NCBI GenBank assembly: GCA_963767115.1
Contig: CAVYCR010000001.1
Span: forward strand, 130,430-194,429
Direction: 5' to 3'
Source: Candidatus Kaiserbacteria bacterium
GTDB taxonomy: Bacteria > Patescibacteriota > Minisyncoccia > Phycocordibacterales > UBA2100
DNA length: 64,000 bases
In this document: positions 3,695-62,049 of the stretch, piece after piece
How the letters are laid out: the number at the start of each line of letters is the position of its first letter
Position numbering within the stretch: the stretch's first letter is position 1
The notes under the pieces: generated by a model
Told to the model about the DNA's origin: nothing
The model's database searches: none
Seen by the model: the letters and a program-made list of their open reading frames with translations, nothing else
Translations under genes and position numbers: made by a program

Positions 3695-4918
3695 ATGGCA
3701 ACAAGAACTCTTGGATATCTTCTGCTTATCGCGGCGATCATTGTGGTCGCGGGCGTCGTCTATCGCGATTCGCTCAAGAGCGAAGTACCGCTCGTCTATA
3801 CGCCGACCCAGCTTCTCGAAGCGACATGGCTCAACTACAAGACCGAGTATGTGCAAGCCAACACCTATCGCACCGTCGATACAAGCAGCAACAGCATCAC
3901 AACCTCTGAAGGCCAGAGCTATACGATGCTGCGCGCCGTATGGATGGGCGACAAAACGACCTTCGATGGCGCGTGGCAGTGGACACAAGACAACATACAA
4001 CATTCGAGCGACCATCTCTTTGCATGGGAATGGGGCGAGACCGCGACGGGTACCTACGGTGTCCTCACGGCAGATAACGGGCAGAACAGCGCCTCCGATG
4101 CCGACACTGACATCGCGCTCTCGCTCGTCTTCGCCTATGGGCGCTGGCAGGACCCGACGTATCTTAAGGACGCGCGTGCGATCGTGACTGACATCTGGAA
4201 CGACGACGTGATAGAGGCGCAAGGCAAGCCATACATGAGTGCTGACGATCTCGAGAAAAAATCTCCCACCTGGGCTGTCATCGACCCTTCGTATTTCAAT
4301 CCTGCAGCGTATCGCATCTTCGCTCAGGTCGACCCCACTCATCCCTGGGCTGAACTCGTGACGGACTCTGATGCACTTCTTTTACAAAGCATGGGTGCTG
4401 ATCTCGGTTCATCGAAGAGCGACGGCTTGCCGCCGGATTGGTTCGAGATCAACAAAACGACCGGCGCCTTGCAGGCTGTACCGATCACAAGCGACGACAC
4501 CAACTTCGGCTACGACGCGATGCGTGTTCCCTTCAGACTTGCCCTCGATTACGAGTGGTACAAGGACCCTGAAGACCTCACGATCCTCTCCAAGATGTCT
4601 CTCCTGCAGGAAGTGTGGCACCAAAACGGGACGATCCCCTCGATCTCTGCACATGACGGCACTGTCGTTACTGCAAGCGAAGATGCATCGATCTACGGCG
4701 GCACAATCGGCTATTTTATGGTTGCCGACAAAGCCGACGCAGCAGATGTCTACAACCAAAAGTTGCTCTTCCTCTACAACCCCGGCGCCAACGCATGGAA
4801 GCTGCCACTCTCGTATTACGACGACAACTGGGCATGGTTCGGTATCGCGCTCTACAACGGAGAGCTGCCCAACCTTGTCTCACAGCTTCCTGCTTCCGCG
4901 TTCAGCCAATCATCATGA
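3695..4918 (+). CDS. Glycoside hydrolase family 8 endoglucanase (BcsZ-like), N-terminal membrane anchor
   Basis: ASDADTDIALSLVFAYGRW fits the GH8 active-site signature as I recall it (A-[ST]-D-[AG]-D-x2-[IM]-A-x-[SA]...). SEGQSYTMLRAVW lies upstream of it. The N-terminal TM segment is LGYLLLIAAIIVVAGVV. Confidence 0.85.
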   Translation: MATRTLGYLLLIAAIIVVAGVVYRDSLKSEVPLVYTPTQLLEATWLNYKTEYVQANTYRTVDTSSNSITTSEGQSYTMLRAVWMGDKTTFDGAWQWTQDNIQHSSDHLFAWEWGETATGTYGVLTADNGQNSASDADTDIALSLVFAYGRWQDPTYLKDARAIVTDIWNDDVIEAQGKPYMSADDLEKKSPTWAVIDPSYFNPAAYRIFAQVDPTHPWAELVTDSDALLLQSMGADLGSSKSDGLPPDWFEINKTTGALQAVPITSDDTNFGYDAMRVPFRLALDYEWYKDPEDLTILSKMSLLQEVWHQNGTIPSISAHDGTVVTASEDASIYGGTIGYFMVADKADAADVYNQKLLFLYNPGANAWKLPLSYYDDNWAWFGIALYNGELPNLVSQLPASAFSQSS

Positions 4919-4958: not shown

Positions 4959-6506
4959 ATGCAGCCCATCAGAAACATCCGTACCGATTTCCTACGCACC
5001 AACACGCCCAAGATCCTCTTCGCGATCAATGCGCTCCTCGCGATCACTTATTTCTGCGTCCTCACCTTTTTCTTCCCGGTAGGCAACCGCGTGCTCTTCG
5101 GGCTTTTGATAGCCGGCGAGGTCTACCATCTCTGGCAGGTCTTGACCTTCCTCTACACCGTGTGGGACACGAGCGACCCTGATGCGCCTGATGCCTCGTT
5201 CACACCGTCGGTTGATGTATTTATAACGGTCGCAGGAGAGCCGGTAGAGCTCGTTGAGCGGACCGCGCGCGCAGCACTTGCAATGGACTACCCCGCTTTC
5301 AATGTCTATCTCCTCAACGACGGCTACGTCGCACACAAAGACAATTGGGAGGAAATAGAAGGTCTGGCCGCACGACTCGGTATCGGTTGCATCACGCGCA
5401 CAACTCCCGGCGGCGCGAAGGCCGGCAACATCAACAACGCGCTTACGCTTACAGGAAGCTCGCTCGTCGCTATCTTCGATGCCGATCACGTACCGCATCG
5501 TGACTTCCTCATCAAGACCGCCGGCTATTTCAAAGACCCCAAGATGGGGTTCGTGCAGACGCCACAATTCTATAGCAACTACGCGCGTAACTATCTCACG
5601 ATGAGCTCGTGGGAGCAGCAAGAGATTTTCTTCGGTCCGATCTGCAAAGGCAAAAACAGACTGAATGCCGCCACCATGTGCGGCACCAACATGCTCATCA
5701 GCCGCGGAGCACTTACGTCTGTCGGCGGCATGAATACGCATTCGATCGCCGAAGATTTTGTGACCGGCCTTTTGATGCACGCGAGCGGCTATCGCTCGAT
5801 CTACGTGCCTACGGTCTTGGCTGAGGGTTTGGCGACCGAAGACTTACTCACCTATTCCAAGCAGCAGTTCCGTTGGGGACGCGGCGCTCTCGACGTCATC
5901 TTCCGTTGGAACCCGCTTCTTATGCGCGGCCTTACGTTCGCGCAGCGGATACAGTATCTCTCGTCAGCGAGCTTCTACCTCTCGGGGCTCTTTGTACTGA
6001 TTGATGCAATGTTGCCCGTCGTATTCTTCTACACTGGGCTCGTGCCTGTGCAGGTCGCCGGCATGTTTCTTGCGAGCATCTTCCTGCCGTACTTCTTCCT
6101 CACGCTCTATATGATCGAATACTCGTCGAATTTCACGTTCACCTTCTCGTCGCTGTGCTTCTCGATGGGCAGTTTCTCCATCCAGCTCAAGGCGCTCGGA
6201 AGTGCCTTGACTGGGACCAATGCAAAGTTTGAAATCACTGAGAAGCGCCGCAATAGTCAGATGGGTCAAACACCACAACGCACCTCGTATCTCTCGATCG
6301 TGAAATGGCACATCGTCTACATCGCACTTGTGATCGCCGGCATTCCGATCGCCTACTTGCGCGGGGGATTCTCTGCATCTCTCATCAACAATTGTGCGTG
6401 GGCATTCCTCAACATTGTGATATTCCTACCCTTCATCCGCGCGGCACTTCCGCAACAAGAAGCGTTTTATCAAGAAGAAGCTTCGCCCGCGCTCGCGACG
6501 CGGTAG
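4959..6506 (+). CDS. Cellulose synthase-like processive beta-glycan synthase (GT2, BcsA-like catalytic subunit, no PilZ domain)
   Basis: Motifs FDADHVP (DxD), SIAEDFVTG (TED-type) and QQFRWGRGAL (QxxRW), flanked by N- and C-terminal TM helices. The C-terminus is short and has no RxxxR/DxSxxG PilZ motif. Confidence 0.8.
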   Translation: MQPIRNIRTDFLRTNTPKILFAINALLAITYFCVLTFFFPVGNRVLFGLLIAGEVYHLWQVLTFLYTVWDTSDPDAPDASFTPSVDVFITVAGEPVELVERTARAALAMDYPAFNVYLLNDGYVAHKDNWEEIEGLAARLGIGCITRTTPGGAKAGNINNALTLTGSSLVAIFDADHVPHRDFLIKTAGYFKDPKMGFVQTPQFYSNYARNYLTMSSWEQQEIFFGPICKGKNRLNAATMCGTNMLISRGALTSVGGMNTHSIAEDFVTGLLMHASGYRSIYVPTVLAEGLATEDLLTYSKQQFRWGRGALDVIFRWNPLLMRGLTFAQRIQYLSSASFYLSGLFVLIDAMLPVVFFYTGLVPVQVAGMFLASIFLPYFFLTLYMIEYSSNFTFTFSSLCFSMGSFSIQLKALGSALTGTNAKFEITEKRRNSQMGQTPQRTSYLSIVKWHIVYIALVIAGIPIAYLRGGFSASLINNCAWAFLNIVIFLPFIRAALPQQEAFYQEEASPALATR

Positions 6507-6509
6507 CCT

Positions 6510-8141
6510 ATGGAATCCTCTATGGCCAAGAACTCTACACGTGTATCCGGGCTTCGGGGAATGCTTTTTGCGACCCGAACGATAGGCGGAAGCGCGAAAA
6601 ACATTCCCCGAAGCCTGGTCGGTCGCACGTGGAGCACGAGTCGAACTTTCGTTATTTGCGCGCTCATCGCCTGCATGGCGATACCGATCTTCCTTTCCGC
6701 CTTTTTCTTCATGGGACAGAGCCTGCGACTCGACGAGGCGCAGAGCCTCTGGCAGACATCTCGCAGTTTCGGCGACATTTTCACGGTCGTCGCCGGTGAC
6801 GTGCACGTGCCGCTGTATCACCTCTTACTCAGGTTCTGGCGCCTCTATGTCGGCAACACAGTCACTGATGCACGTGCGCTCTCGTTGCTCTTCTATGTCA
6901 TCTCGATCCCAGTGCTTTACATGCTTGGCCGTAGAGCATATGAAAGCCGCACTGCGCTCTTTGCCACCTTCCTCTTCTCGATCTCGCCGTTTATGAATTG
7001 GTACGGCAACGAAGTGCGCATGTACACGCTCTTCACACTCTTCGTCATACTCAACCAATATTTCTACGTCCGTATTTTCAAAGCCAAAGCAGACGGTGGT
7101 GAACCGAGCGACCATATTTGGGCCGGCTATACACTCACCGCTCTCTTCGGCGCGTTTACACATTATTTCTTCTTTCTCAATTTGCTCGCACAAGCCGTCT
7201 TCTATTTCCTCCGCCGCGACCTCTTCCCTATAGGTTCTCTGAAACGATTTATTTTTGCAGCAGTTATCGTCGTCGGTAGTTTCCTACCATGGGGATGGTA
7301 TGTGCTCCACCTCGGCACTGCCGGCTTCCAAGAGCCCGTCTTAGCGCTCCCCTCTTCGGTTGATTTCTTCAGCGCCTTCGGCCAATTCCTCTACGGTTTT
7401 CAGAACGACAACGTCAACACGGTCTTCCTCTCACTCTGGCCGATCGTAGTAGTGCTTGGGCTCATTTCGCTCAGGCGAAGTCATAGACTCCAAGCAGAGA
7501 GCGAATATTTCCTGCTCACGGTGCTGCTCTCGTTTGCGGTAGCTTTCTTCGGGAGCTTCGTGCTCGCACCCGTTTTCGTGAGCCGCTACCTCATCTTCAC
7601 CATCCCCGCTTTCTACCTCTTGCTCGCGAGTCTCTTTGAAAATTATTCGCCGCGTATGCAAGAGCTGGCGCAATGGGGACTCGCGTGCATTATGATAGCG
7701 ACCCTCGGGCTCGAGATTATCAACCCTACGATGCCCGTGAAAGAAGATTACTCGCAGGCGGTCGCATACATCGACACGCACGCGACCTCGCAAGACAGTG
7801 TGATCCTCTCCGCGCCGTTCACCATCTATCCAGTGCAGTATTACTACACGGGCCAAGCACCAGTAACCACGCTCCCTATATGGAACCAATACGCTTACGG
7901 CGGGATTCCGGCTTTTAGCGCAAGTACGCTTGCCTCACAAGTACAGCAAGACGTCGGTGCGAGTCAAAATATTTATCTCTTGCTCTCGTACAACCAAGGC
8001 TACGAGCTCGACATCAAAAACTATTTCGATTCGCACTATCAAATGGTCTACAGTCAGACCTTCTCTGACGATCTCAATCTCTACGTCTACAAAGCCCGCT
8101 ATGACACGGGCGCAACAGCTATTGCAACCACGTTGAAATAA
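6510..8141 (+). CDS. Polytopic GT-C glycosyltransferase (ArnT/PMT, GT39/83-like)
   Basis: 543-aa multi-TM ORF. The N-terminal loop LRLDEAQSLWQTSRSFGDIF...HVPLYHLLLRFW...NEVRMYTLF resembles the ArnT/PMT family. The start is uncertain (6510 or 6522). Confidence 0.6.
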   Translation: MESSMAKNSTRVSGLRGMLFATRTIGGSAKNIPRSLVGRTWSTSRTFVICALIACMAIPIFLSAFFFMGQSLRLDEAQSLWQTSRSFGDIFTVVAGDVHVPLYHLLLRFWRLYVGNTVTDARALSLLFYVISIPVLYMLGRRAYESRTALFATFLFSISPFMNWYGNEVRMYTLFTLFVILNQYFYVRIFKAKADGGEPSDHIWAGYTLTALFGAFTHYFFFLNLLAQAVFYFLRRDLFPIGSLKRFIFAAVIVVGSFLPWGWYVLHLGTAGFQEPVLALPSSVDFFSAFGQFLYGFQNDNVNTVFLSLWPIVVVLGLISLRRSHRLQAESEYFLLTVLLSFAVAFFGSFVLAPVFVSRYLIFTIPAFYLLLASLFENYSPRMQELAQWGLACIMIATLGLEIINPTMPVKEDYSQAVAYIDTHATSQDSVILSAPFTIYPVQYYYTGQAPVTTLPIWNQYAYGGIPAFSASTLASQVQQDVGASQNIYLLLSYNQGYELDIKNYFDSHYQMVYSQTFSDDLNLYVYKARYDTGATAIATTLK

Positions 8142-18179: not shown

Positions 18180-18281
18180 TCGTGAGCCGACTGGTTTTTG
18201 GGGTCGATGCCTCGCGGCGGCGCGAAATAGAGTTCTTTTTCAGCAGAAAAAGAACGACCCCAAAAGCCAGTCGGCTCACGA
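18180..18281. repeat. Long foldback element A (26-27 bp arms, 48-nt interior with nested hairpin)
   Basis: Arms 18181-18206 cgtgagccgactggtttttggggtcg and 18255-18280 cgaccccaaaagccagtcggctcacg are complementary except for one T/G position. The interior contains gttcttttt-cagcag-aaaaagaac. Confidence 0.8.
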
Positions 18282-20939: not shown

Positions 20940-21059
20940 GGGCCGCCTGGCCTGACAGTTACTTTTTCATTCGAGGACCGAACCCGCAGACCGCGAAGCG
21001 GGCGTGAGGGCGCTATGCGTCCCGCAGAATGAAAAAGTAACTGTCAGGCCAGGCGGCCC
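20940..21059. repeat. Long foldback element C (33-bp perfect arms, 54-nt GC-rich interior)
   Basis: 20940-20972 gggccgcctggcctgacagttactttttcattc is the exact reverse complement of 21027-21059. It lies 28 nt downstream of the cca stop (minus strand). Confidence 0.8.
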
Positions 21060-31155: not shown

Positions 31156-31220
31156 GCCGACAGTATAGCTTTCAGGTTTCAGTTGTCAGCTTTCAATGAT
31201 AGGGGACAACCCCGATTCAA

Positions 31221-37569: not shown

Positions 37570-38073
37570 ATGCAAAGACTGATAATTATCCGGGGATATC
37601 CGGGTTCAGGTAAGACAACTGCCGGCAAGCTCTTAGAGCAGAATGGCTGCGGGACTTTTATCGATCACAATGCGATTCTGAATTTTATTGCAGGAATTAT
37701 TGGTGATGATGAAGATATCCAGAAAGAAATACACGATTTGGAAAAAGCGATGGTTCGTAAGCTTTTACTTGATAAAAGATCAGTGATCGTCGCGAGAGGT
37801 TTTAGTAGCGAACGCAGAATTAACGAATACGTTGATATTGCGAAACATCTCAACGTTGAGGCACTCGTCTTCAGACTTTCAGTTCCCATGAATCTGCTAG
37901 AGAAAAGAGTAGAAAATGATGAACGAAAGTCTGACTTTAATCCGACGACGAGGCCCGATGCGTTGCATAAGTGGGTTAGCTCAAATCCTCTTGAGGAATA
38001 CCCAGGAGAGATTGTGATCGACGCACAAAACAGTGCTCAGGAGGTCTTTTCAGCGATAAGAGCATATCTTTGA
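37570..38073 (+). CDS. P-loop NTPase / AAA-family kinase-like protein
   Basis: The Walker A motif IIIRGYPGSGKTTAGK lies near the N-terminus. At ~167 aa it resembles small nucleotide or zeta-like kinases. Confidence 0.65.
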   Translation: MQRLIIIRGYPGSGKTTAGKLLEQNGCGTFIDHNAILNFIAGIIGDDEDIQKEIHDLEKAMVRKLLLDKRSVIVARGFSSERRINEYVDIAKHLNVEALVFRLSVPMNLLEKRVENDERKSDFNPTTRPDALHKWVSSNPLEEYPGEIVIDAQNSAQEVFSAIRAYL

Positions 38074-38082
38074 GACTGACAT

Positions 38083-38230
38083 ATGCAAATAAAAAGCGTC
38101 GGAATAATAGGCTTTGGCGACTTCGGCCAGTTTCTTTTTACGCTTGCTAGAGAGCGCTTTCCAGACTTGCAGGTCAAAGTCTTTTCTTCGCGCAAAAATC
38201 CAGATAACAAAGATTTCTTTTCGTTTGTGC
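38083..38230 (+). pseudogene. Possible remnant of an NAD(P)-binding (Rossmann, prephenate-dehydrogenase-like) gene
   Basis: MQIKSVGIIGFGDFGQFLFTLARERFPDLQVKVFSS has a GxGxxG dinucleotide-binding start. Beyond ~50 aa the ORF turns into low-complexity sequence antisense to the 38276..38596 gene. Confidence 0.3.
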
Positions 38231-38275
38231 CACCTGAGAGAAACAGTTTCTCTCATGCTCAAAAAGTAAGCCGCA

Positions 38276-38596
38276 TCAGTCATGATGCGGCTTATCGAAT
38301 CCGGCTTCGTGGTCTGCGCGGACGTGGTTTCTGGTCATCGTATTATTCCAGACACTATGTAGCTCAATATAGGCGAATACCCAACCCATCCATCGCGCGG
38401 CCTTAAGAGCTTCATCGATGGATGTGGTGTCCATTCGCCCGACCTCGTCGCACATCCAGAGGAGATACGGAAGCGGAGCAAGCTGTCCCTCTATAATCTC
38501 TGAGCATGCGGCCTGCGTACCGGGGTAGTGCTCCTCTATCGCAGCCCGGAGCGCTGTGATGGTTCCTCGATAGAACATAGTACCTCTCATCTCCAT
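38276..38596 (-). CDS. Hypothetical protein (106 aa)
   Basis: The ORF has plausible composition (EALKAARWMGWVFAYIELH). No RBS seen and no confident family. Confidence 0.4.
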   Translation of the reverse strand: MEMRGTMFYRGTITALRAAIEEHYPGTQAACSEIIEGQLAPLPYLLWMCDEVGRMDTTSIDEALKAARWMGWVFAYIELHSVWNNTMTRNHVRADHEAGFDKPHHD

Positions 38597-38694
38597 AGAA
38601 GACTAGGCAAAACCTACCATATATAAGAACCGTTTCTCTCATGTTCTGTGCTTTTTCTGCCAAAATATGCTAACGTGCCGGCGGTCACGACCAG

Positions 38695-38931
38695 TTGGCC
38701 AAAACAAGAAGGTTGGTTCTAATGACAAGAGAAAACGAAGTCAAATCCACGGTCAGAGACTCTTTTCTATCCCACTGCGTCGAAAATCGTACTCACTTGA
38801 CGCTATTCCTTATGAACGGGGTCAAGCTGCAAGGGTGTATCACCGAATTTGATGGCGTTGGCGTCCTGCTTGAGCGTGACCGTAAGAAGCAGTTCGTCCA
38901 CTATGGGGCGATATCATCTTTCTTTCCGTGA
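38695..38931 (+). CDS. hfq: Hfq-like (Sm-fold) RNA-binding protein
   Basis: VRDSFLSHCVENRTHLTLFLMNGVKLQGCITEFDGVGVLLERDRKKQFVHYGAISSFFP parallels the Hfq Sm1/Sm2 pattern (QD.FLN..R......V.I.L.NG..L.G.I..FD.F..LL.....Q.VYKHAIST..P). The start may be the ATG at 38722. Confidence 0.65.
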   Translation: MAKTRRLVLMTRENEVKSTVRDSFLSHCVENRTHLTLFLMNGVKLQGCITEFDGVGVLLERDRKKQFVHYGAISSFFP

Positions 38932-39074
38932 CCGTCGGCTGATTCAGCGCAACAAGAAAAGCCCGCGTTTTCGGAAGGAATGCGGGCGTATTTTCTTGTT
39001 TATGCACTCCGGTTGTTGCGCGGACAAGGTGAGGTGTGTAATAGTGTCTGAAGCCGGCAAAAAGGAGGCCGCTC

Positions 39075-39278
39075 ATGTTACGGAGACGCAATGATTCGAG
39101 GTACGAAGTACCACCGTCGGTCATCATCGAAGCGACTAAACGTTCAAGATGGGAAGACGGATTTCTCGACGGTAAAAACGGGAGGGAATCTGCTAGCGAC
39201 GACGCGAGTTATATGAATGGTTTTTGGGCAGGAAAACTGAAGAGGGCGATCGAATCTCCAATGGTTGTTCACATGTAG
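39075..39278 (+). CDS. Hypothetical small protein (67 aa)
   Basis: AAGGAGG lies 7 nt upstream of the ATG. No family recognised. Confidence 0.45.
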   Translation: MLRRRNDSRYEVPPSVIIEATKRSRWEDGFLDGKNGRESASDDASYMNGFWAGKLKRAIESPMVVHM

Positions 39279-39378
39279 AGTATATTCGACCCTGCATTAG
39301 GAGAAAATTTTTGTACAACGCATCGCGTATCGGCGCGCTCGGGATCGAGCGCGCTTTTTTCATATATAATTAATCGCG

Positions 39379-40599
39379 ATGGCGCACTTTTCTTACACGG
39401 CACAGAAGACCGACGGCGAGACGTACCAGGGCGTCGCCGAGGCTCCCGATCGTTTCCAGCTCTACGAGATCATCCGGCGCGAAGGCGGCAAGGTGATCTC
39501 GGTCGACGAGCAAAAGCATACCGGCGTGTGGAGCGCCGACTATTGGAACCAGAAGATGACGCGCGTGAAGGAGTACGAGAAGATACTCTTCGCGAGAAAC
39601 TTGGGCGCCATGCTCTCCGCCGGTCTCGCGCTCTCCCGCGCGCTCTCGGTCATGGAGCGCCAGACCAAGAACATCAAGCTCAAGGCGATCATCGCGGACA
39701 TTGGCAGCGAAGTGCGCCGGGGCAATCCGCTCCACGCGGGGCTCGAGAAGTTTCCGAAGGTATTCCCGAAGCTCTTCGTCGCGATGGTGCGCGCGGGCCA
39801 GGAGGGCGGCGACCTGCCCGCTTCGCTCACGCTGGTAGGCGACCAGATGGAGCGCATGTACGACCTCAAGAAGAAAGTGAAAGGCGCCCTGATCTACCCT
39901 TCGATAATCGTGGTCGCGATCGTTGGCATCGGTATCGTAATGATGATCGTGGTCGTGCCGACTCTCGCAGCTACCTTTGAACAGAGTCATGAGACATTAC
40001 CGGCCTCGACGCAGTTTGTCATCAACGTAAGCAACTTCCTCGTGCATTACACCGTGCTTGCGATAGGTGGCATGATCGGGTCCGTGGTGCTTGTGTATCT
40101 TGCTAGCAAGACTAAGGTGGGGGGTCGCGCTTTTGAGTTTCTCTTTTTGCATACACCGGTTGTCGGCAATCTCATGCGCGAGGTGAACGCAGCTCGTACC
40201 GCGCGCACGCTCGGCTCGCTGCTTGCCTCCGGCGTCGACGTGCTTACCTCACTCACGATCGTGCACGAGGTCTTGCAAAATTCGTATTTCAAGCAAGTGA
40301 TCGACGAAGCGCAGGCCGCGGTACGCGCCGGCGAGCAGCTCTCGACGGTCTTCGAGAAGCGCGTCGATCTCTACCCGCCCTTTGTAGGAGAGATGATCGC
40401 GGTGGGCGAGGAGACCGGCGCCACGACCGAGATGCTCAAGCGCATCGCCGTGTACTACGAAGACAATGTCGACCGTTCCACCAAAGACATGTCGACGATC
40501 ATCGAACCCTTCCTCATGATCATCATCGGGTGCGCTGTCGGCTTCTTTGCGGTCTCTATGATCACGCCGATCTATCAGCTCTCGTCTAATATAAATTAA
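39379..40599 (+). CDS. pilC: Type IV pilus / type II secretion platform protein (PilC/GspF family)
   Basis: 406 aa with two T2SSF repeats (ILFARNLGAMLSAGLALSRAL...; LGSLLASGVDVLTSLTIV...) and three TM segments. It ends IIGCAVGFFAVSMITPIYQL. Confidence 0.9.
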   Translation: MAHFSYTAQKTDGETYQGVAEAPDRFQLYEIIRREGGKVISVDEQKHTGVWSADYWNQKMTRVKEYEKILFARNLGAMLSAGLALSRALSVMERQTKNIKLKAIIADIGSEVRRGNPLHAGLEKFPKVFPKLFVAMVRAGQEGGDLPASLTLVGDQMERMYDLKKKVKGALIYPSIIVVAIVGIGIVMMIVVVPTLAATFEQSHETLPASTQFVINVSNFLVHYTVLAIGGMIGSVVLVYLASKTKVGGRAFEFLFLHTPVVGNLMREVNAARTARTLGSLLASGVDVLTSLTIVHEVLQNSYFKQVIDEAQAAVRAGEQLSTVFEKRVDLYPPFVGEMIAVGEETGATTEMLKRIAVYYEDNVDRSTKDMSTIIEPFLMIIIGCAVGFFAVSMITPIYQLSSNIN

Positions 40600-40638
40600 C
40601 GAGCTTCTCGGGACTAGTCGCTAGCTTCTAGTGAAATC

Positions 40639-42372
40639 ATGAAAAAACAGCTTTCAACTGTCCCACGCGGCCTCACGCTCATCGATACGATGGTCGGCAT
40701 CGCGCTTATGGTGCTGGTCTTCGTCGGGATCTACGGCACCTTCCAGCTGACTGTCGATGTAGTGACCAACGAAAAGGCACAAGCCGGTGCGCTCGGGCTT
40801 GCCGATGAGCGGATGGAATACCTGCGCTCGCTCGGCTACAGCGCTGTCGGCACGGTAGGCGGTGTGCCCTCGGGGAATCTCCCGCAGACGGAGAGTCTCT
40901 CGCTCAACGGGATTAGTTACACGCGACGTACCTATATCGAATACGACGATGATCCGGCAGATGGTCTGGGTAGTAGCGATACCAACGGCATCATCGAAGA
41001 TTACAAATCCGCCAAGGTAGAAGTGCTCTGGAGCTTGAAGGGGATCACGCACAGCGTCGTGCTTGTCGCACGCTTCTCTCCGACGACTGGTATGGAATCA
41101 GCGGTGCCCGGCGGCACGCTCATAATCAATGCAGTCAATTCTGTCGGAGCGCCGATCTCCGGCGCGTCTGTAGCAATCGTGGCAACCTCTGCCTCGCCCA
41201 CGGTCAACATAAATACCTTCACCAATGCGAGCGGCACCGCGACCGTACTCGGCGCGCCCGCGTACTCGGGCTATCAGGTCACGGTGACTGCTTCCGGCTA
41301 TTCGACCGCAAGCACCTACAGCGTGACGAGCCAAAACACCAACCCCAATCCCGGCAATCTTTCGGTCACCAAGAACCATACGACATCCGCAACTTTCGCG
41401 ATCGATCTCCTCGGCACCAAGACCGTTAACACTTGGACACAGGTACTCAGTGGCACATCGACCGACCCCTTCAACAACACAAGCGAGATAGCAACATCAA
41501 CCGGCATTTCTGTGACTGGTGGCGCGGCACAACTTGCCGTAGGCTCGACTACTGGCGAAGTACAATCGGTCGCGTTTAGTCCTTCATATCTTGCCGATTG
41601 GGGGACCTTCACCTGGAGCGATACTCAGCCTGCGAGCACCTCGATCCGCTATCGACTCTACAGCGGCGACGGCACGACCCTCGTTCCTGATTCATATGTG
41701 CCAGGAAATGCCGCGGGTTTTGTGAGCGGCAGCGTGAGTCTTTCCGGTGTTCCAACCAGCACCTATCCTTCACTGCGCCTTGATGCGGTCTTCTCTTCGG
41801 CAAGTACTACGACGACACCATCGCTCACGCTCTGGAGTATCACCGACTCGTACGGCCCTGTGCCGCTTCCCAACATCGCCTTCAATCTCCAAGGCGGCAA
41901 GACAATCGGCAGCGGCCCCGGCGGTACGCTTTACAAATACAGTCAGAACTTCAGCACCGCGGGCAACGGGAGCATCACCATCCCAGGTCTTGAGTGGGAC
42001 AATTACACGGTCACGATCAGCGGCTCAAGCGGCTACGATGTGGCTTCAGCTTGCAACCCGCAGCCCGAGAGTCTTTCGCCGGGATCTACCATGACCAGCA
42101 ACTTCTATCTCGCGGCGCATACGGGGAACTCGCTTCTAGTAGACGTGCGCGGTGCGACAAGTGGCGCCCTGATCCCGAACGCCTCGGTACAGCTCTCGAT
42201 CGCGGGCTACAATAAGACGATACCGACTGATAACTGCGGACAGGCGTTCTTCTCGGGTGTCTCCGCATCAAGTAATTATTCGATCAGTGTGTCTGCGCCA
42301 GGATATTCGACATACAATGGAAGTGCGGTGAGCGTGAACGGCACTTCGAGACTCTCAGTGTCGTTGAATTAA
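40639..42372 (+). CDS. Large pseudopilin-like protein (prepilin-type N-terminus, Ig/CarboxypepD_reg-like repeats)
   Basis: MKKQLSTVPRG|LTLIDTMVGIALMVLVFVGIYG is a pilin-like leader and helix. The remainder is rich in T/S/G beta-type repeats (GAPISGASVAIVATS..., GALIPNASVQLSIAG...). Confidence 0.7.
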   Translation: MKKQLSTVPRGLTLIDTMVGIALMVLVFVGIYGTFQLTVDVVTNEKAQAGALGLADERMEYLRSLGYSAVGTVGGVPSGNLPQTESLSLNGISYTRRTYIEYDDDPADGLGSSDTNGIIEDYKSAKVEVLWSLKGITHSVVLVARFSPTTGMESAVPGGTLIINAVNSVGAPISGASVAIVATSASPTVNINTFTNASGTATVLGAPAYSGYQVTVTASGYSTASTYSVTSQNTNPNPGNLSVTKNHTTSATFAIDLLGTKTVNTWTQVLSGTSTDPFNNTSEIATSTGISVTGGAAQLAVGSTTGEVQSVAFSPSYLADWGTFTWSDTQPASTSIRYRLYSGDGTTLVPDSYVPGNAAGFVSGSVSLSGVPTSTYPSLRLDAVFSSASTTTTPSLTLWSITDSYGPVPLPNIAFNLQGGKTIGSGPGGTLYKYSQNFSTAGNGSITIPGLEWDNYTVTISGSSGYDVASACNPQPESLSPGSTMTSNFYLAAHTGNSLLVDVRGATSGALIPNASVQLSIAGYNKTIPTDNCGQAFFSGVSASSNYSISVSAPGYSTYNGSAVSVNGTSRLSVSLN

Positions 42373-42373
42373 T

Positions 42374-42459
42374 ATGAGAAAACAGCTTTTAGCTTCTAGC
42401 TCACAGCTTCTAGGAAAAATACGTCGGCGTTCTTTGTATTTTCTAGAAGCTAGAAGCTC
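42374..42459 (+). repeat. 86-nt 5' module, copy 1 (hairpin built from GCTTCTAG / CTAGAAGC units)
   Basis: It differs from 43066-43151 at one position by manual alignment. It contains 2x gcttctag, aaaatac-loop-gtatttt, then 2x ctagaagc, giving a ~23-bp imperfect hairpin at 42391-42458. Confidence 0.85.
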
Positions 42460-43069
42460 TTCACTAGAAGCTCGTTCTCGGGGCATGACCCTCATCGAAA
42501 CGGTAGTGTGGATCGCGGTGCTTTCCTTCGCCATGCTCGCGCTCACTACCTCGCTTCTGTATTTCTACCGGACCGATCGGTACGAAATACAGGAAGAGTA
42601 CGCCGTCTCGACGGCACAGCATGCGATGGATGCGATGGTCCGCGCGCTGCGCACGGCCGCGTTTTCCAACAACGGCGCGTATCCCATCCTGTCGATCGCG
42701 CCCGACCAGATCTCTTTTTATGCGAGTGTGTTGCCCAACGATCCTCTGATACAACAGGTGCGCTTCTTCGTCTCCGGCAACTCTATCGAAGAAGGTATCA
42801 TCGAGCCGCAAGGAGACCCGCTCACCTACGCCTCGTCGTCGGAGAGCATTACTGACCTCGGCAATTACGTCCTCAATGCGACACTCGCGACATCGACGTT
42901 CTACTATTACGATCAAAACGGCAATCAAATAACCGACGATTCGCAGTCTGACCAAGTACGCTTCGTAGTGGTGAACCTCGTTGTCGATGTCTCTACCTCG
43001 TCCTTGCCGTCGCAGCTCACGCTCGTTTCTTCCGCGGCGCTGCGCAACTTGCTCAATCTCAATATATGA
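42374..43069 (+). CDS. Pseudopilin-like protein with unusually long 37-aa leader
   Basis: ...EARSRG|MTLIETVVWIAVLSFAMLAL has G at -1 and E at +5. The ATG lies 1 nt after the previous stop. The first 86 nt are duplicated at 43066. Confidence 0.7.
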   Translation: MRKQLLASSSQLLGKIRRRSLYFLEARSSSLEARSRGMTLIETVVWIAVLSFAMLALTTSLLYFYRTDRYEIQEEYAVSTAQHAMDAMVRALRTAAFSNNGAYPILSIAPDQISFYASVLPNDPLIQQVRFFVSGNSIEEGIIEPQGDPLTYASSSESITDLGNYVLNATLATSTFYYYDQNGNQITDDSQSDQVRFVVVNLVVDVSTSSLPSQLTLVSSAALRNLLNLNI

Positions 43070-43151
43070 GAAAACAGCTTTTAGCTTCTAGCTCGCAGCT
43101 TCTAGGAAAAATACGTCGGCGTTCTTTGTATTTTCTAGAAGCTAGAAACTA
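43066..43151 (+). repeat. 86-nt 5' module, copy 2
   Basis: See 42374-42459. The ATG overlaps the previous stop (ATGA). Confidence 0.85.
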
Positions 43152-43192
43152 CTTCAGCTACCGAAGCTCGTTCCCGGGGTGTCACGACACTC

Positions 43193-44611
43193 ATGGTCAT
43201 TATTTTCATGGGAATATTCCTACTCATTCTCGCGAGTGTGACAGGCTTCGCTCTTGAGGAGGGCAAGTACGGTCGCGCGCTCATCGGCCGCGAGCAGGCG
43301 CTCGACGTCGCCGAGAGCGGTCTCGAATACTACCGGTGGTTTCTTGCGCATTTCCCCGGTAATCTCACCAACGGCACCGGGGGAAGCGGCCCGTATTCGT
43401 ACACCGTGAGCGACCCTGAGACTGGTGGGTCGATCGGCACTGCTTCGATTGCGATAACGGGCAACCTGCAGTGCGGACAGATCCAGTCGATCGACATTAC
43501 CTCGACAGGCAACTCCACAAACTACCCCGGCTTCCCGCGCACGCTTTTCGCGCGCTACATGCAGCAGAGTGTAGCGGCCTACGCCTATCTTCTCAACAGC
43601 AATGTATGGGCTGGCAGCACGCTCTCGATCACCGGACCGTACTTCAGCAACGGCGGCATACGCATGGACGCGACCAACAACTCGACCGTACAGAGTGCCG
43701 TATCGACTTGGGTGTGCAGCACGAGCTACGGTTGTTCGCCGGCCCAAAACAGCGCGCCGGGCGTCGTGGGCAGCGGCAGCGGCTCGTCACTCTGGCAGTA
43801 TCCCGCCTCGTCGATTGATTTCAACGGCATTACTTCCAACCTCTCCAGTATCAAGACTTATGCGATGAACAACGGCGGCCTGTATTTTCCGAAAGCGTCC
43901 GGTGTTGCCAACCAGCGCGGCTACCATCTTATCTTCAGGTCAAACGGCACGGTCGACGTGTACCGCGTCACCTCGACGGTCGGCGTCCCCGCCTATCCTG
44001 TCTCGGGTACCGGCGTCGCACAGACCGATTACAATATCATCAACGCGCAAACCTATCTGGGCAATTACACGATTCCCACCAACTGCTCGGTGATCTTCGT
44101 CGAAGATCGCGCATGGGTCGAGGGAACTGTCGCGGGCAAGGTAACCGTCGCGGCGGCTGACTTCGTCGATTCCAATTACAGCCCCGATGTATATATTGCC
44201 AACAACATCTACTATGGTGCCTACGACGGAAGTGTCGGTCTCACGGTGATAGGCGAGGGCAACGTCTTGATCCCGCTCAATTCACCGAACAACCTCGAGA
44301 TCCACGGCATCTTCGTAGCTGACGGCGGGAGCTTCGGTCGTGATTTCTACACCAACAATTCGTCACTGGGTACACCGGTGCCGTCCTCATACAACGCCGA
44401 CGTGATGGAGAACGACCTCTTGATCGACGGCACTATCGTCTCAAATGGCCGCACGGGGACCGCATGGTTATGCGGCTCACCCGGCACGTTCTGCTCAGGG
44501 TATCAAAACCGCACGACTTCTTATGACGAGTTGCAAGCCTTGAACCCGCCTCCTTTTACACCGGCTGCCTCCGACAACTTCGGATTCATCGAGTGGAAGG
44601 AGATAAATTAA
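43193..44611 (+). CDS. PilX-like / large pilus-associated protein; upstream pilin-type leader is in a different frame
   Basis: ORF 43193..44611 starts MVIIFMGIFLLILASVTGFAL. In the same frame, without any start codon, the upstream sequence reads LETTSATEARSRG|VTTL. The duplicated leader ORF (43066..43257) is one frame behind, so joining them needs a +1 shift between about 43150 and 43180. Confidence 0.6.
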   Translation: MVIIFMGIFLLILASVTGFALEEGKYGRALIGREQALDVAESGLEYYRWFLAHFPGNLTNGTGGSGPYSYTVSDPETGGSIGTASIAITGNLQCGQIQSIDITSTGNSTNYPGFPRTLFARYMQQSVAAYAYLLNSNVWAGSTLSITGPYFSNGGIRMDATNNSTVQSAVSTWVCSTSYGCSPAQNSAPGVVGSGSGSSLWQYPASSIDFNGITSNLSSIKTYAMNNGGLYFPKASGVANQRGYHLIFRSNGTVDVYRVTSTVGVPAYPVSGTGVAQTDYNIINAQTYLGNYTIPTNCSVIFVEDRAWVEGTVAGKVTVAAADFVDSNYSPDVYIANNIYYGAYDGSVGLTVIGEGNVLIPLNSPNNLEIHGIFVADGGSFGRDFYTNNSSLGTPVPSSYNADVMENDLLIDGTIVSNGRTGTAWLCGSPGTFCSGYQNRTTSYDELQALNPPPFTPAASDNFGFIEWKEIN

Positions 44612-44643
44612 CCGCGAAAAAATCGGTGTGATACAATCGACGC

Positions 44644-45396
44644 ATGAAATCGATGATCGTCGCGAACTGGAAGATGAATCCGCCGACGTTCAGGGAAGCG
44701 AAGGCACTTCTTGAGGCCACCAAGAAGGCCGCCGATGTCGGCAAAAGCATCTCGATCGTTGTGGCGCCTCCTGCGATCTACTTGCGCGATCTGCGCGCGA
44801 GCTATCGCGGCAAAAGGCTCGCCTTCGCCGCGCAAAACGCGCACTACGAAAAGAGCGGTGCCTATACTGGCGAGACCTCGCTCGTCCAGCTCAAGGACGC
44901 TGGCGTCGGCTACGTGATCGTGGGCCACGCCGAGCGTCGTGCGATGGGTGAGACCGACGACGACACGCGCAAGAAAGTCGCCGCATCACTCGCGCTTTCG
45001 ATCACACCGGTCTTGTGTGTCGGAGAGCTCAAGCGCGGAAGCGACGGCGAGCATTTGAGCTTCGTCAAAGAACAGCTCCGTGCAGGGTTTGCCGATGTTC
45101 CTGTAGCGAAGATCGCACGCGTGATCGTCGCGTATGAACCGGTGTGGGCGATTGGTGCCACGACACCCATGGGTCCGCGCGACATGCACGAGACTGCCAT
45201 TTTCATACGCAAGACGATCGTGGAGCTCTACGGCAAGGTCGGTATGTCAGTGAAGATTCTCTACGGCGGTTCGATTGACGAGGTCAGCGCTCCGGCAATG
45301 CTCCAACAAGGAGACGTCGACGGGCTGCTCGCGGGGCGCGCGAGCGCTGAAGGCAAAAGAATGCTCGCACTCGTGCGTGCGATGCAAAACGCCTGA
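44644..45396 (+). CDS. tpiA: Triosephosphate isomerase
   Basis: IVANWKMN...VVAPP...AQN...GAYTGE...VIVGHAERR...YEPVWAIGT...YGGS: full set of TIM motifs. Confidence 0.9.
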   Translation: MKSMIVANWKMNPPTFREAKALLEATKKAADVGKSISIVVAPPAIYLRDLRASYRGKRLAFAAQNAHYEKSGAYTGETSLVQLKDAGVGYVIVGHAERRAMGETDDDTRKKVAASLALSITPVLCVGELKRGSDGEHLSFVKEQLRAGFADVPVAKIARVIVAYEPVWAIGATTPMGPRDMHETAIFIRKTIVELYGKVGMSVKILYGGSIDEVSAPAMLQQGDVDGLLAGRASAEGKRMLALVRAMQNA

Positions 45397-45398
45397 CT

Positions 45399-46526
45399 AT
45401 GAAATTCATCAACGACGTACCAGAAGCAGAGTTGCGCGGCAAGTGCGTCTTGGTGCGCGCGGGGCTTGACGTACCGCTTGATGCGCACGGCGAAGTCGCC
45501 GATATTTTTAGGGTCAAACGCGCGGCAGAGACGCTTCGTTTCCTTAGTGCGCAGGGTGCGAAGGTCATCGTACTCTCGCATATCGGCCGCGACCCCTCCG
45601 AGACCAACGAGCCGGTTTCGCGTGCCTTGAATAAAGAATTGCCGGTAACCTACATGCCCGAGGTAACGGGCCCCGCTGTCACTGGCGCGATAGGGGCGAT
45701 GCGCGAAGGCGAAGTGCTCCTCTTGGGCAACTTCCGCAGCGACGAGCGCGAAGCGGCAAACGACGATGGCTTCGCCCGCGAGCTCGCCGCTCTCGGCGAT
45801 ATCTATGTCGACGACGCATTCTCCGTGGCGCACCGCGCACATGCCTCTATCGTCAGTATGCCGAAGTATCTGCCAAGCTATGCGGGCATCCTCATGCGCG
45901 AAGAGATCAATAGTCTACAGAAGGCACTCGCGCCGGAGTCACCGTCATTAGCAATCCTTGGGGGTGCGAAGTTTGAGACCAAGTCGCCGCTCATCAAAGT
46001 ACTCCTCGAGAAGTACGATCATCTTTTCATCGCCGGTGCTTTGGTTAATGATGTATTGAAAGCAAAAGGGTTCCCTGTCGGTGTCTCGTTGATATCCAAA
46101 GAAATTCCGACACCGGAGATCCTCAATCATCCGCGTCTCGTAGTACCTGTCGACATCACCGTAGAGAGCGCTGACGGTCAGGCCCGCGTGAAGAAGCCCG
46201 CAGAAGTCGCTGTAGACGAGCGCATTGTCGACATCGGCCCTGACTCCATCGCCCTCATCGCGCCGCTTATCATGAGCGCCAAATACATACTGTGGAACGG
46301 TCCTACCGGATTATATGAACACGGATTCACACAGTATACGCACGCGATCGCGGAGCTCGCTGGCAAAAGCGGCGCACAGACCGTGATCGGCGGCGCCGAC
46401 ACGATCGCCTCGATAGACGAAGCAGGCGGGCAAGTTAGCCCCAACATTTTCTACTCCACCGGCGGCGGCGCGATGCTCGACTATCTCATCGACGGCACGC
46501 TCCCCGGCATAACCGCGCTCGGGTAA
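45399..46526 (+). CDS. pgk: Phosphoglycerate kinase
   Basis: LRGKCVLVRAGLDVPL...RVKRAAETLRFL...KVIVLSHIGR...VDDAFSVAHRAHAS...GGAKFETK...WNGPTGLYE...GGADT. Confidence 0.9.
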   Translation: MKFINDVPEAELRGKCVLVRAGLDVPLDAHGEVADIFRVKRAAETLRFLSAQGAKVIVLSHIGRDPSETNEPVSRALNKELPVTYMPEVTGPAVTGAIGAMREGEVLLLGNFRSDEREAANDDGFARELAALGDIYVDDAFSVAHRAHASIVSMPKYLPSYAGILMREEINSLQKALAPESPSLAILGGAKFETKSPLIKVLLEKYDHLFIAGALVNDVLKAKGFPVGVSLISKEIPTPEILNHPRLVVPVDITVESADGQARVKKPAEVAVDERIVDIGPDSIALIAPLIMSAKYILWNGPTGLYEHGFTQYTHAIAELAGKSGAQTVIGGADTIASIDEAGGQVSPNIFYSTGGGAMLDYLIDGTLPGITALG

Positions 46527-50326: not shown

Positions 50327-50438
50327 CTGCCCCGTCCCAACCCCATTATGCCGGCTACGCAGGCCCGGCGGGGCCGAGTCCGAGCGCTGGGCGAGCACGC
50401 CCAGATAGCGACGGCATAATGGGGTCGGGACGGGGCAG
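50327..50438. repeat. Long foldback element F (27-bp arms with one A/C position, 58-nt GC-rich interior)
   Basis: 50327-50353 ctgccccgtcccaaccccattatgccg pairs with 50412-50438 cggcataatggggtcgggacggggcag. It starts 7 nt after the recJ stop. Confidence 0.8.
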
Positions 50439-58029: not shown

Positions 58030-58386
58030 ATGCAAAGCAAGAAGGATTCGGTTACCAACGAGAAAATATTCGGTCTCCTCTTGGATATGGATGAACGTAT
58101 CACGTCAATGGACGAGCGCATTGCCTCAATGGACGAGCGCATTACATCTATGGACGAGCGCATTATATCTATAGATGGACACGTTAATTCCATTGATGAG
58201 CGGATGGCAACCAAGGCCGATCTTCGCGAGTACGCCACCAAGAATGATCTTGAACGATTCAGGGATGAGATCCTTAAGGAAGTACGACCGCTCCATAGGG
58301 CGGTCGATACGGATGCCGAGACCATTATCGACCATGGCAGGCGCATTACCGCTCTCGAAAAACACGCAGGCATCGCGCCCCGATAA
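58030..58386 (+). CDS. Hypothetical coiled-coil protein with 7-aa tandem repeats
   Basis: MDERI[TA]S occurs four times, followed by two degenerate units (21-bp tandem repeats at 58087-58212). The start is taken at the ATG at 58030. Confidence 0.5.
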   Translation: MQSKKDSVTNEKIFGLLLDMDERITSMDERIASMDERITSMDERIISIDGHVNSIDERMATKADLREYATKNDLERFRDEILKEVRPLHRAVDTDAETIIDHGRRITALEKHAGIAPR

Positions 58387-60731: not shown

Positions 60732-61148
60732 ATGGCTACCATCAACCAGCTCACGCGCAAAGGACGCACTAACCCTGTGCGCAAGACGAAGACCCTCGCA
60801 CTCGCGCGTGGCTTCAATTCATTGAAAAATCGCCCGAGCTTCTATCCTTCGCCTTTCAAGCGCGGCGTCTGCACGCGCGTGACCACCAAGACTCCCCGCA
60901 AGCCAAACTCCGCTATCCGAAAGATCGCCCGCGTACGCCTGACCAACGGCATGGAAATCACCGCCTACATCCCGGGAGAGGGACACAACCTCCAGGAGCA
61001 CTCGGTCGTCTTGGTGCGCGGTGGCCGCGTGAAGGACATCGGTATCCGTTACACGATCGTGCGCGGCAAGCTTGATGCGACCGGTGTCGACAAGCGCCGC
61101 CGCGGCCGTTCACGCTATGGCGCGAAGCGCCCGAAGGCAGCCAAATAA
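60732..61148 (+). CDS. rpsL: 30S ribosomal protein S12
   Basis: [12 protein letters not shown]...[31 protein letters not shown]...[21 protein letters not shown]. The ORF-track start at 60660 is an upstream extension. Confidence 0.95.
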
Positions 61149-61180
61149 TCTCAAAGTTCAAATCTAAAATCTCAAATCTT
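61147..61180 (+). repeat. AATCTCAAAG-TTCAAATCT-AAAATCT repeat, copy 1 (rpsL-rpsG spacer)
   Basis: The 25-26 nt atctcaaagttcaaatctaaaatct recurs inverted at 62091-62116 and, with two changes, at 61654-61681. Confidence 0.8.
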
Positions 61181-61642: not shown

Positions 61643-61653
61643 GTTTCAAAATT

Positions 61654-61681
61654 AAATCTCAAAGATCAAATCTCAAATCTA
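61654..61681 (+). repeat. AAATCTCAAAG repeat, copy 2
   Basis: aaatctcaaagatcaaatctcaaatcta. It also forms the 5' arm of the rpsG terminator hairpin. Confidence 0.75.
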
Positions 61682-61704
61682 GGTGACTAGGTTTGAGATT
61701 TTTT
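61668..61704 (+). terminator. Intrinsic terminator after rpsG
   Basis: aaatctcaaa-(tcta ggtgac tagg)-tttgagattt followed by TTT. It overlaps the stop of the minus-strand four-helix-bundle gene. Confidence 0.65.
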
Positions 61705-62049
61705 CATTGTGCGGACGCTTGCTCCTAAGATGTTGGCTATCTCACGACTTTCCTGCTTGAGTTTGTCAGCATCTTTAATCGAAGGATTTGAATCACATAG
61801 TAATGCGAGCCAAAAAGTTGATTCATTGGCTGACTTGAGGGCATGTGTATAAAAGTTAATGTAGTCTTTTCTAGAACTTGCCGCTCGCGCCTCCGTCACG
61901 TTCGCTGCGACCGATGTACCACTGCGAACAAGTTGTTTTCCTAACTCCCTCGAAGCAGTATCGTTCGGGAGTTTGCTCACAAATCGTACGACACCAAGCG
62001 AATAATCGTAAAAGCGCTTCTCAAACATTTTCTTGTCTGCTGACCCCAT
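61687..62049 (-). CDS. Four-helix-bundle protein (family formerly called 23S rRNA intervening-sequence protein)
   Basis: FEKRFYDYSLGVVRFVSKLPNDTASRELGKQLVRSGTSVAANVTEARAASSRKDYINFYTHALKSANESTFWLALL matches the conserved pattern of this family (recall). Confidence 0.8.
   Translation of the reverse strand: MGSADKKMFEKRFYDYSLGVVRFVSKLPNDTASRELGKQLVRSGTSVAANVTEARAASSRKDYINFYTHALKSANESTFWLALLCDSNPSIKDADKLKQESREIANILGASVRTMKKSQT

Follow-up and report, generated by a model that had tools for sequence, protein, structure and literature searches.

Upstream of the Haemophilus influenzae adhesin genes hmw1A and hmw2A, (ATCTTTC)n heptamer repeats form a hairpin in the 5' untranslated region that is cut by RNase III; the repeats are transcribed and act in cis, and their number alters expression (PMC12721329). 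In Streptococcus gallolyticus, the pil1 pilus operon lies behind a translated leader with repeats and a stem-loop, and ribosome traversal of the stem-loop decides expression of the pilus genes downstream (PMC3894217). We analyzed a comparable arrangement in a 64,000-nucleotide (nt) stretch of DNA from Candidatus Kaiserbacteria bacterium (assembly GCA_963767115.1, contig CAVYCR010000001.1, positions 130,430 to 194,429; hereafter the window), where two consecutive type IV pilin-like genes open with near-identical copies of a hairpin module. We consider this module to be a member of a lineage-variable class of 7-nt-repeat hairpins, which we name "junction hairpins" and for which we propose, with a probability of roughly 45%, a cis-acting role at pilin starts.

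The repeated module and the reading frames of genes 2 and 3

The type IV pilus cluster within the window consists of a pilC/gspF-type gene followed by three tightly coupled prepilin-like genes, numbered 1 to 3 here (Table 1). A repeat search identified an 87-nt direct repeat with 98% identity (42372-42458 and 43064-43150) that opens genes 2 and 3. The original prediction, made from the letters of the window, had described near-identical modules differing at one base at the starts of these two genes; the repeat is real, but the exact ranges, 42374-42459 and 43066-43151, differ at three bases (42403 A/G, 42456 G/A and 42459 C/A), with one base different in the first 82 nt of the module copies. 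Its description of a start ATG coupled to the previous stop and of a long imperfect hairpin was confirmed in both copies: the coupling takes the form TAA-T-ATG in gene 2 and of an ATGA overlap in gene 3, and the predicted folding energies are -44.6 kcal/mol (copy 1) and -41.4 kcal/mol (copy 2), corresponding to z-scores of -3.7 and -3.2, respectively, as compared with dinucleotide shuffles. The peptide encoded by both copies is MRKQLLASSSQLLGKIRRRSLYFLEAR. Downstream of the 87-nt repeat, a divergent stretch of 11 nt in gene 2 and 15 nt in gene 3 is followed by a shared block, GAAGCTCGTTCYCGGGG.

The hairpin arms are tandem arrays of the 7-nt units AGCTTCT and CTAGAAG, with two to four imperfect units per arm. 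The sequence GCTTCTAG/CTAGAAGC occurs 10 times in the window as compared with 1.8 expected occurrences, a number reached in none of 100 shuffles, and all copies of GCTTCTAG are confined to positions 40624-43142, including the related copy upstream of gene 1 that had been predicted and was found at 40624. The array preceding gene 1 contains three TAGs spaced 7 nt apart, and its complementarity to the right arm of gene 2 is 79%.

The distance from the ATG to Gly(-1) in gene 2 is 111 nt, which agrees with the predicted leader of 37 amino acids (aa) ending RSRG^MTLIE in frame (the caret marks the cleavage site). An in-frame TTG in the loop (42434) is a possible alternative start and would give a 17-aa leader. 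A TAG-bearing unit repeated every 7 nt brings TAG into all three frames by turns; in both arms of copy 1, TAGs are found in frames 1 and 2 only, and the frame-0 slots are occupied by CAG (42404) and TCT (42458). This editing of the frame-0 slots explains why the units CTCACAG and CTCTTCA deviate from the others and, in turn, why the hairpin has an internal loop; the same stop editing is found in two relatives, L037 and L071 (CTAGTGG CTATTGG CTAGTGG; loci collected for comparison are given by L numbers). The codon positions establish a gene-2 module that is predicted to be translated in frame and from which the in-frame TAGs have evidently been edited out.

Gene 2 shows the leader pattern of a type IV prepilin (class III signal peptide), in which a short basic leader with a Gly(-1) end precedes a hydrophobic N-terminus containing Glu5. 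Homologs of gene 2 were found in Candidatus Kaiserbacteria/Paceibacterota metagenome-assembled genomes. Gly(-1) and Glu5 are invariant across 39 aligned homologs, and G(-1) was found in nearly all of the orthologous loci; the score against Pfam N_methyl is 18.3 bits, below the cut-off of 21.2. In the gene-2 record of the source genome and in those of many homologs, the called start is the mature Met (MTLIE...) and the leader is dropped. Gene callers that start at the mature Met thus miss pilin leaders. Where leaders are called, the repeats translate as low-complexity peptides, such as GYWLVAS, TNYKLQT/TNYKLQTTNY and NTEYRI/NTEYRIQNTEY.

The corresponding distance in gene 3 is 115 nt (3n + 1), which places RSRG^VTTLMVIIF in the +1 frame and therefore disconnects gene 3 from its start ATG. 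The pilin frame is closed by the TAGs of the module itself (43082, 43103 and 43136) and contains no ATG, GTG or TTG before the ATG at 43193 (residue +5), and the frame of the ATG at 43066 ends at a stop at 43257 and would give a 63-aa non-pilin product. In a prepilin, the leader is contiguous and in frame with the start, which is the case in genes 1 and 2 but not in gene 3. We checked the frames of 244 orthologous gene starts, and in all others Gly(-1) is preceded by an ATG, GTG or TTG in the same frame; all array-bearing orthologs retain an in-frame start, and in gene 3 of L073 the loop ATG is lost and an in-frame GTG is kept. Gene 3 of the window, whose out-of-frame leader with no start of its own had been correctly predicted, is a rare exception among orthologs. 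These frames establish a gene 3 that is predicted to be OFF, either as a young pseudogene or in a reversible OFF state. With one CTAGAAG unit fewer (43135-43141), the leader would be 36 aa long and free of stops, MRKQLLASSSQLLGKIRRRSLYFLETTSATEARSRG^VTTLMV; a 1-nt indel would restore the frame equally well. The frame state of gene 3 would fit an out-of-register conversion or slippage event.

Table 1. Features of the pilus cluster, with positions counted from the first letter of the window
Feature	Position	Strand	Basis or remark
pilC/gspF-type platform protein gene, first of the cluster	39379..40599	+	Pfam T2SSF, E = 2.3e-57
Left-arm-like array GAGCTTCTCGGGACTAGTCGCTAGCTTCTAG just upstream of the gene-1 ATG	40598..40631	+	Inverted-repeat search
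Pilin-like gene 1	40639..42372	+	Ordinary 11-aa leader, MKKQLSTVPRG^LTLID; CarboxypepD_reg domains
Pilin-like gene 2, whole	42374-43069	+	Prepilin-like start, ...RSRG^MTLIE
Gene-2 leader-coding region with module copy 1, 111 nt, 37 codons	42374..42484	+	Sequence, frame check
Copy 1 left arm, array AGCTTCT/CTTCTAG	42384..42413	+	CAG at 42404 where TAG would be in frame
Copy 1 right arm, CTAGAAG CTAGAAG CTCTTCA CTAGAAG	42443..42472	+	Frame-0 slot TCT at 42458
Gene-2 mature pilin-like protein, MTLIE..., 194 aa	42485..43069	+	Homolog alignment; weak N_methyl match
Module copy 2 on gene 3, 115 nt = 3n + 1	43066..43180	+	Left arm 43076-43105; right arm 43135-43168
Gene-3 mature-protein frame, VTTLMVIIF...	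43181..44611	+	Intact; 85% identical to the L020 ortholog

The pilC/gspF-type gene also matched the NCBIfam GspF and PilC models with scores under their cut-offs, and sequence searches of genes 2 and 3 against PDB gave no meaningful match. An Hfq-domain open reading frame (ORF; 38695-38931; Pfam Hfq, E = 2e-14) is located immediately 5' of a strong terminator-like hairpin (39332-39355) and pilC, in surroundings (37600-39370) with no ORF above 107 aa. A fourth pilin gene with a canonical short leader, possibly encoding the major pilin, is present on the minus strand at about 780-900 and is preceded by two CGATATA units and the ribosome-binding-like motif AAGGAAA.

Arrays of 7-nt units in related loci and elsewhere

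We collected 102 loci from Kaiserbacteria/Paceibacterota. At each locus, the +1 codons of the three genes were placed by tblastn, and tandem arrays were called with Tandem Repeats Finder; duplicate loci were removed before orthologs were counted. Arrays of 7-nt units were found at most 170 nt upstream of the +1 codon in 19 of 64 orthologs of gene 1, 10 of 77 orthologs of gene 2 and 23 of 77 orthologs of gene 3, and the share of array-bearing orthologs accordingly ranged from 13 to 30%. Period 7 accounted for 67 of the 74 tandem arrays in the pilin 5' regions (42 kb), compared with 20 of the 77 arrays in the other 520 kb. Among other gene starts, 8 out of 237 had a 7-nt array, mostly pilC or further pilin genes, and the array frequency was approximately 7-fold higher at pilin gene starts (24% versus 3.4%).

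The arrays occupy the interval between the upstream stop codon and a point some 12 nt 5' of the Gly(-1) cleavage codon. Relative to the +1 codon, the geometry is constant, with right arrays at about -45 to -12 and left arrays at about -115 to -75 nt, and the arms in the window (-101..-72 and -42..-14) fit the position range of these arrays. The arrays of relatives contain 2.5-5 units, rarely 7-10, and their arms are usually complementary, whereas the unit sequence differs between lineages (CTACAAA, CCACTAG/CTAGTGG, GAATACN, CTGAAAG, CTGTTCG and others), left arms being biased toward TAG/GTA and right arms toward CTA/TAC. The arms are repetitive, and cassettes from different lineages do not align. 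The ATG takes one of two positions: in the loop, giving leaders of 19-28 aa, or 5' of both arms, giving 33-38 aa, which is the case in the window. The median folding z-score was -2.6 in array-bearing regions, compared with -0.2 in regions without arrays. In Kaiserbacteria/Paceibacterota, which belong to the candidate phyla radiation (CPR), members of the class span the stop/start junction of type IV pilin-like genes and the sequence encoding their disposable leader peptide. Beyond the original prediction, the hairpin arms are 7-nt tandem arrays, their imperfections are in-frame stop avoidance, and the module, far from being absent from all other pilin loci, is part of a class that is widespread in related loci.

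In some cassettes, the right array and Gly(-1) are separated by an additional perfect hairpin that is rich in G+C, for example CCCCGCGAAGCC-TTT-GGCTTCGCGGGG; such hairpins were observed in L010 (about 3970-4000 and 4650-4684) and in the gene-3 leaders of L040/L043.

No module is present in either gene of L020, the closest relative, which shares 81% aa identity in gene 2 and 85% in gene 3. Its gene-2 leader is MIPRITYAWHRSTEEAG^MTLIE, and its gene-3 leader, MKTRQSVCRISRG^VTTLMVIVF, is in frame and shows the same ATGA overlap with the gene-2 stop. The leaders of L021 are likewise short and in frame, with no module. Since both of these relatives have short in-frame leaders and no module, the module is recent in the lineage of the window. 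The loci L069, L070 and L071 (gene 2 91-93% identical) each have a cassette of their own, unrelated to the other two, at gene 3 as well as at gene 1. The borders of these cassettes are sharp, one lying at the upstream stop and the other about 10 nt short of Gly(-1), and genes 1 and 3 share the unit within each of L070 and L071. L043 is 96% identical to L040, but in its gene 2 a copy of the L043 gene-3 cassette stands in place of the former cassette. Extensive sharing of a cassette by genes 2 and 3, as in the window, was also found in L037, L073 and L010. In line with these examples, 9-mers were common to different pilin genes in 10 of 185 pairs within a locus, compared with 38 of 15600 pairs between loci.

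In L007 and L036, exactly one 7-nt unit differs, in the non-coding left arm, and coding parts show indels of 9 and 15 nt between relatives. The arrays do not differ among replicate assemblies (L013/L055/L074 and L007/L044). Slippage plus gene conversion are indicated, because the unit differs between close relatives yet is often shared within a genome. The absence of the module from L020 and the recurrent sharing in other loci bear out the recent gene conversion between genes 2 and 3 that the original prediction had considered, and the comparison establishes that the cassette was in all probability recently copied between these two genes in the window. Mobility as a dispersed element, which it had also proposed, was not supported: no further module copies are present elsewhere in the 64-kb window, and the module-encoded leader peptide had no match in 5.8 billion protein clusters. 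A dispersed repeat of the miniature inverted-repeat transposable element, repetitive extragenic palindrome (REP) or Correia type was thus rejected, given that there are no dispersed copies and no duplication and that the borders are set by coding features, coinciding with the stop codon and the G(-1) region.

Period-7 arrays were also observed outside the three pilin genes. The rpsG gene of the window is flanked by arrays of the unit CAAATCT, just upstream of the ATG (61147-61179) and downstream of the stop (61646-61709), the latter being the left arm of a terminator-type hairpin followed by a T-run; the rpsG arrays show that 7-nt repeats occur at other genes as well as at those for pilins. 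A fourfold AGCTTTC array (31167-31195) is located directly 5' of the ATG of a small predicted membrane protein (minus-strand start near 31153), and the gene-3 cassettes of L007 and L036 are built from this unit too. In L037, a distant relative (46% aa identity in gene 2) whose own pilin genes use CCACTAG/CTAGTGG, a non-coding TAGCTTC/CTAGAAG hairpin resembling that of the window module is present upstream of tpiA (6074-6169), and TAG is kept in every unit of this hairpin.

A scan of viral contigs for the arm pair of the window returned seven stretches, six of which (61-64% GC; L104-L109, from IMG/VR) are dense in period-7 arrays. These six contain 6-13 arrays per 3-14 kb stretch, located at gene junctions, convergent gene ends included, and many unit types occur, among them AGCTTCT/CTAGAAG hairpins. 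A host-directed search of the viral contigs found no phage match and only a DUF5131 domain.

Other repeats in the window are of a different kind. Three intergenic, near-perfect inverted repeats of 27-33 bp (20940-21059, 50327-50438 and 18180-18281; also 6547-6618) enclose structured loops of 48-58 nt, and the predicted fold is a three-way junction (-75 to -91 kcal/mol); these repeats contain no heptamer arrays and matched nothing in Rfam. At 58086-58172, a 21-nt tandem repeat with 4.1 copies encodes the 7-aa repeat SMDERI[ATI].

Possible functions and competing explanations

The structural and evolutionary description of the arrays is well supported. With regard to function, we infer that the hairpins would most likely act at mRNA junctions to modulate the translation or processing of minor pilins. 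In the polycistronic mRNA, such a hairpin would act at the cistron junction and may gate the re-initiation of translation at the minor pilin downstream or its translational coupling; alternatively or additionally, it may serve as a processing, stability or attenuation hairpin. Ribosomes translating the leader would melt the hairpin, and the repeats may make it unstable, so that expression states could change, either as a side effect or as a switch. We favor this role because the arrays sit at stop/start junctions of coupled cistrons, because pairing is kept while the sequence drifts, because the arrays persist in translated leaders despite the cost of stop-codon editing and because they are abundant at the junctions of compact viral genomes. 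The arrays flanking rpsG and the CTAGAAG hairpin upstream of tpiA in L037 speak for a generic role at junctions. The hmw heptamer hairpin and the pil1 repeat leader, which have been studied experimentally and work in a related way, also support this possibility.

However, several observations weigh against a cis-acting role of the hairpins. The arrays are absent in 70-87% of orthologs and in the closest relative, and they are thus dispensable for pilin gene function. The ATG lies in the loop in many loci but upstream of both arms in the window, a variability that is hard to reconcile with a single fixed mechanism. No Rfam family matches the modules: a scan of 38000-46000 at E <= 1 gave no match, and a scan of the whole window at the gathering score gave tRNAs only. 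A consensus scan for promoters and terminators found no site overlapping the modules and no U-tract; the right arms are followed by CTCGTTCYCGGGG, and the modules are therefore not intrinsic (rho-independent) terminators. We also compared sense and antisense folding and counted G-U pairs, and the antisense strand folded better by approximately 3.7 kcal/mol in array-bearing and array-free regions alike. Since the antisense advantage is equal with and without arrays, this comparison does not separate an RNA-level role from a DNA palindrome or a mutational origin. Selection on an RNA or DNA structure, as raised by the original prediction, is plausible in that the architecture is conserved across lineages while the sequence varies.

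Two serious rivals to the favored explanation are a neutral origin and a true phase-variation switch. According to the former, slippage and quasi-palindrome template switching would generate and homogenize functionless inverted arrays that are tolerated only in the unconstrained leader and junction, with the frameshift of gene 3 as collateral damage. This possibility is rather doubtful, but it accounts for many of the observations: the cassettes are missing from most orthologs and from L020, they are replaced wholesale between relatives with 91-96% identity, no sense-strand G-U signature was found, L007 and L036 differ by a unit-sized indel, and one copy has inactivated its gene. It does not readily explain why pilin starts show an approximately 7-fold excess of arrays over other gene starts, why the position of the arrays is fixed relative to the +1 codon or why TAG-bearing units persist in translated leaders, where editing is needed. 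The density of period-7 arrays at the junctions of compact viral genomes and the recurrence of the units CCACTAG/CTAGTGG and CTAGAAG in distant genomes also argue against neutrality.

As a phase-variation switch, gain or loss of one 7-nt unit (7 = 1 mod 3) would toggle each minor pilin, and gene 3 would have been caught OFF. The unit length is indeed not a multiple of 3, the arrays are located in the coding leader of surface-appendage genes, and the 3n + 1 leader of gene 3 becomes stop-free on removal of one CTAGAAG. L007 and L036 also differ by a unit-sized indel, which lies in a non-coding arm. The frame-switching genes opa and pilC of Neisseria are familiar precedents. The pil1 operon is another (PMC3894217). 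We nevertheless consider such a switch unlikely, since arrays of only 2-5 imperfect units are expected to slip at a low rate, contingency tracts typically having 5-10 or more units, and since, of about 52 array-bearing genes and 244 starts, gene 3 of the window alone has lost its frame. Indels in coding parts between relatives measure 9 and 15 nt, replicate assemblies agree in their arrays, and genes 2 and 3 differ by 4 nt rather than 7. Moreover, slippage does not need an inverted arrangement.

The frameshift of gene 3 could also be an assembly or sequencing error in a repeat-rich stretch, in which case gene 3 would have a normal long leader like that of gene 2. The source is a metagenome-assembled genome, the near-identical repeats are 692 nt apart, and every other ortholog checked is in frame. 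However, the length difference falls in the divergent segment (11 versus 15 nt), not in a homopolymer or perfect repeat, and the 87-nt repeat is shorter than typical reads; we consider an error of this kind decidedly unlikely.

We see only a slim chance that the arrays are binding sites for a trans-acting factor, either a protein reading triplets at 7-nt spacing on RNA or one that binds a DNA operator common to the pilin genes within a genome. HutP recognizes (UAG-N4)3 on RNA, a likeness that makes for a low-probability rival in view of the many arrays without TAG. Such a factor would be consistent with the frequency of TAG in left-array units (13/24) and of TAC (20/43) and CTA (17/43) in right-array units, as compared with approximately 11% expected, as well as with the three spaced TAGs directly 5' of the gene-1 ATG, the common units within a genome and the Hfq-like ORF just upstream of pilC. 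On the other hand, many arrays contain neither TAG nor CTA (CTGTTCG, CTGAAAG and CACCAGA), several unit types occur within 4 kb of one genome (L037), and units change completely between close relatives. Finally, programmed recoding, by which ribosomes from 43066 would reach the pilin frame of gene 3 by a +1 frameshift or by a bypass of the hairpin resembling T4 gene 60, is suggested by a stable hairpin between a start codon and an ORF in another frame and by the GCT codons flanking it on both sides, but it was rejected as highly improbable because gene 2 and the other array-bearing orthologs are read straight through in frame, there is no stop after the take-off codon, no slippery +1 motif was seen at 43139-43180, and the closest relative has an ordinary leader.

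A broader possibility, which we regard as fairly unlikely, is that the period-7 hairpins constitute a cis-regulatory system of Paceibacteria-type CPR bacteria and their phages, operated by a dedicated 7-nt-periodic factor or as a conversion-driven switch. If so, the switch would set which minor pilins are displayed by the episymbiont, and the window would represent a state in which a register error of one unit has turned one pilin off. CPR bacteria probably rely on type IV pili to attach to their hosts and to take up DNA. To our knowledge, they have very few recognizable regulators, and their genetic study is not yet possible. A sequence-variable element that is located at pilin starts, turns over between near-identical strains and appears able to switch a gene off would be of interest in this context, and the arrays offer a concrete, testable handle on the control or variation of CPR surface appendages.

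Comparison with described systems

The candidate junction hairpins resemble the hmw system in that heptamer repeats form an arm of a stable long hairpin upstream of a structural gene. However, the hmw hairpins have at least 10 perfect repeats, on the left arm only and opposite a G-rich right arm, in an untranslated leader, whereas the arrays described here have 2-5 imperfect units on both arms and are often inside a translated prepilin leader; furthermore, RNase III cleavage of hmw was demonstrated experimentally, whereas the present hairpins are known from sequence. With pil1, they share an association with pilus genes and a translated leader with short tandem repeats and a stem-loop. The pil1 leader is a separate small ORF with 5-nt GCAGA repeats and a stem-loop that is a transcription terminator, whereas here the repeats are the hairpin arms within the signal leader of the pilin itself, with no U-tract thereafter.

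In Neisseria, opa (with CTCTT units in the signal-peptide region) and pilC (with a poly-G tract) undergo phase variation by frame switching. Phase variation of opa is also mentioned in PMC3745409. As in these genes, the unit here is not a multiple of 3 and is located inside the region encoding the cleaved leader of surface proteins; the Neisseria tracts, however, are long and perfect, have no inverted partner and show well-documented ON/OFF polymorphism, whereas we have one OFF example. Cyanobacterial short tandemly repeated repetitive (STRR) heptamers, REP sequences and bacterial interspersed mosaic elements, and Correia-type repeats can form hairpins at gene boundaries and affect mRNA stability or processing. 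The arrays described here likewise consist of short repeats, as do the STRR tandem heptamers, and are hairpin-capable and located at gene boundaries; but those elements are dispersed in many copies with a genome-wide consensus, in contrast to the site-specific unit that is confined here to neighboring genes. In cluster K mycobacteriophages, start-associated and extended start-associated sequences, which comprise conserved motifs and inverted repeats, are found immediately upstream of many translation starts in the compact phage genomes. These sequences are comparable to the period-7 arrays at the gene junctions of L104-L109, although they follow one conserved consensus, do not consist of heptamers and lie outside pilin leaders. 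Searches of the literature on repeats and phase variation in CPR bacteria retrieved no description of arrays like those in the window. The hairpin class at pilus-gene starts in this group is thus apparently undescribed, and it belongs to a known kind, namely the repeat-based 5' hairpins of surface-structure genes.

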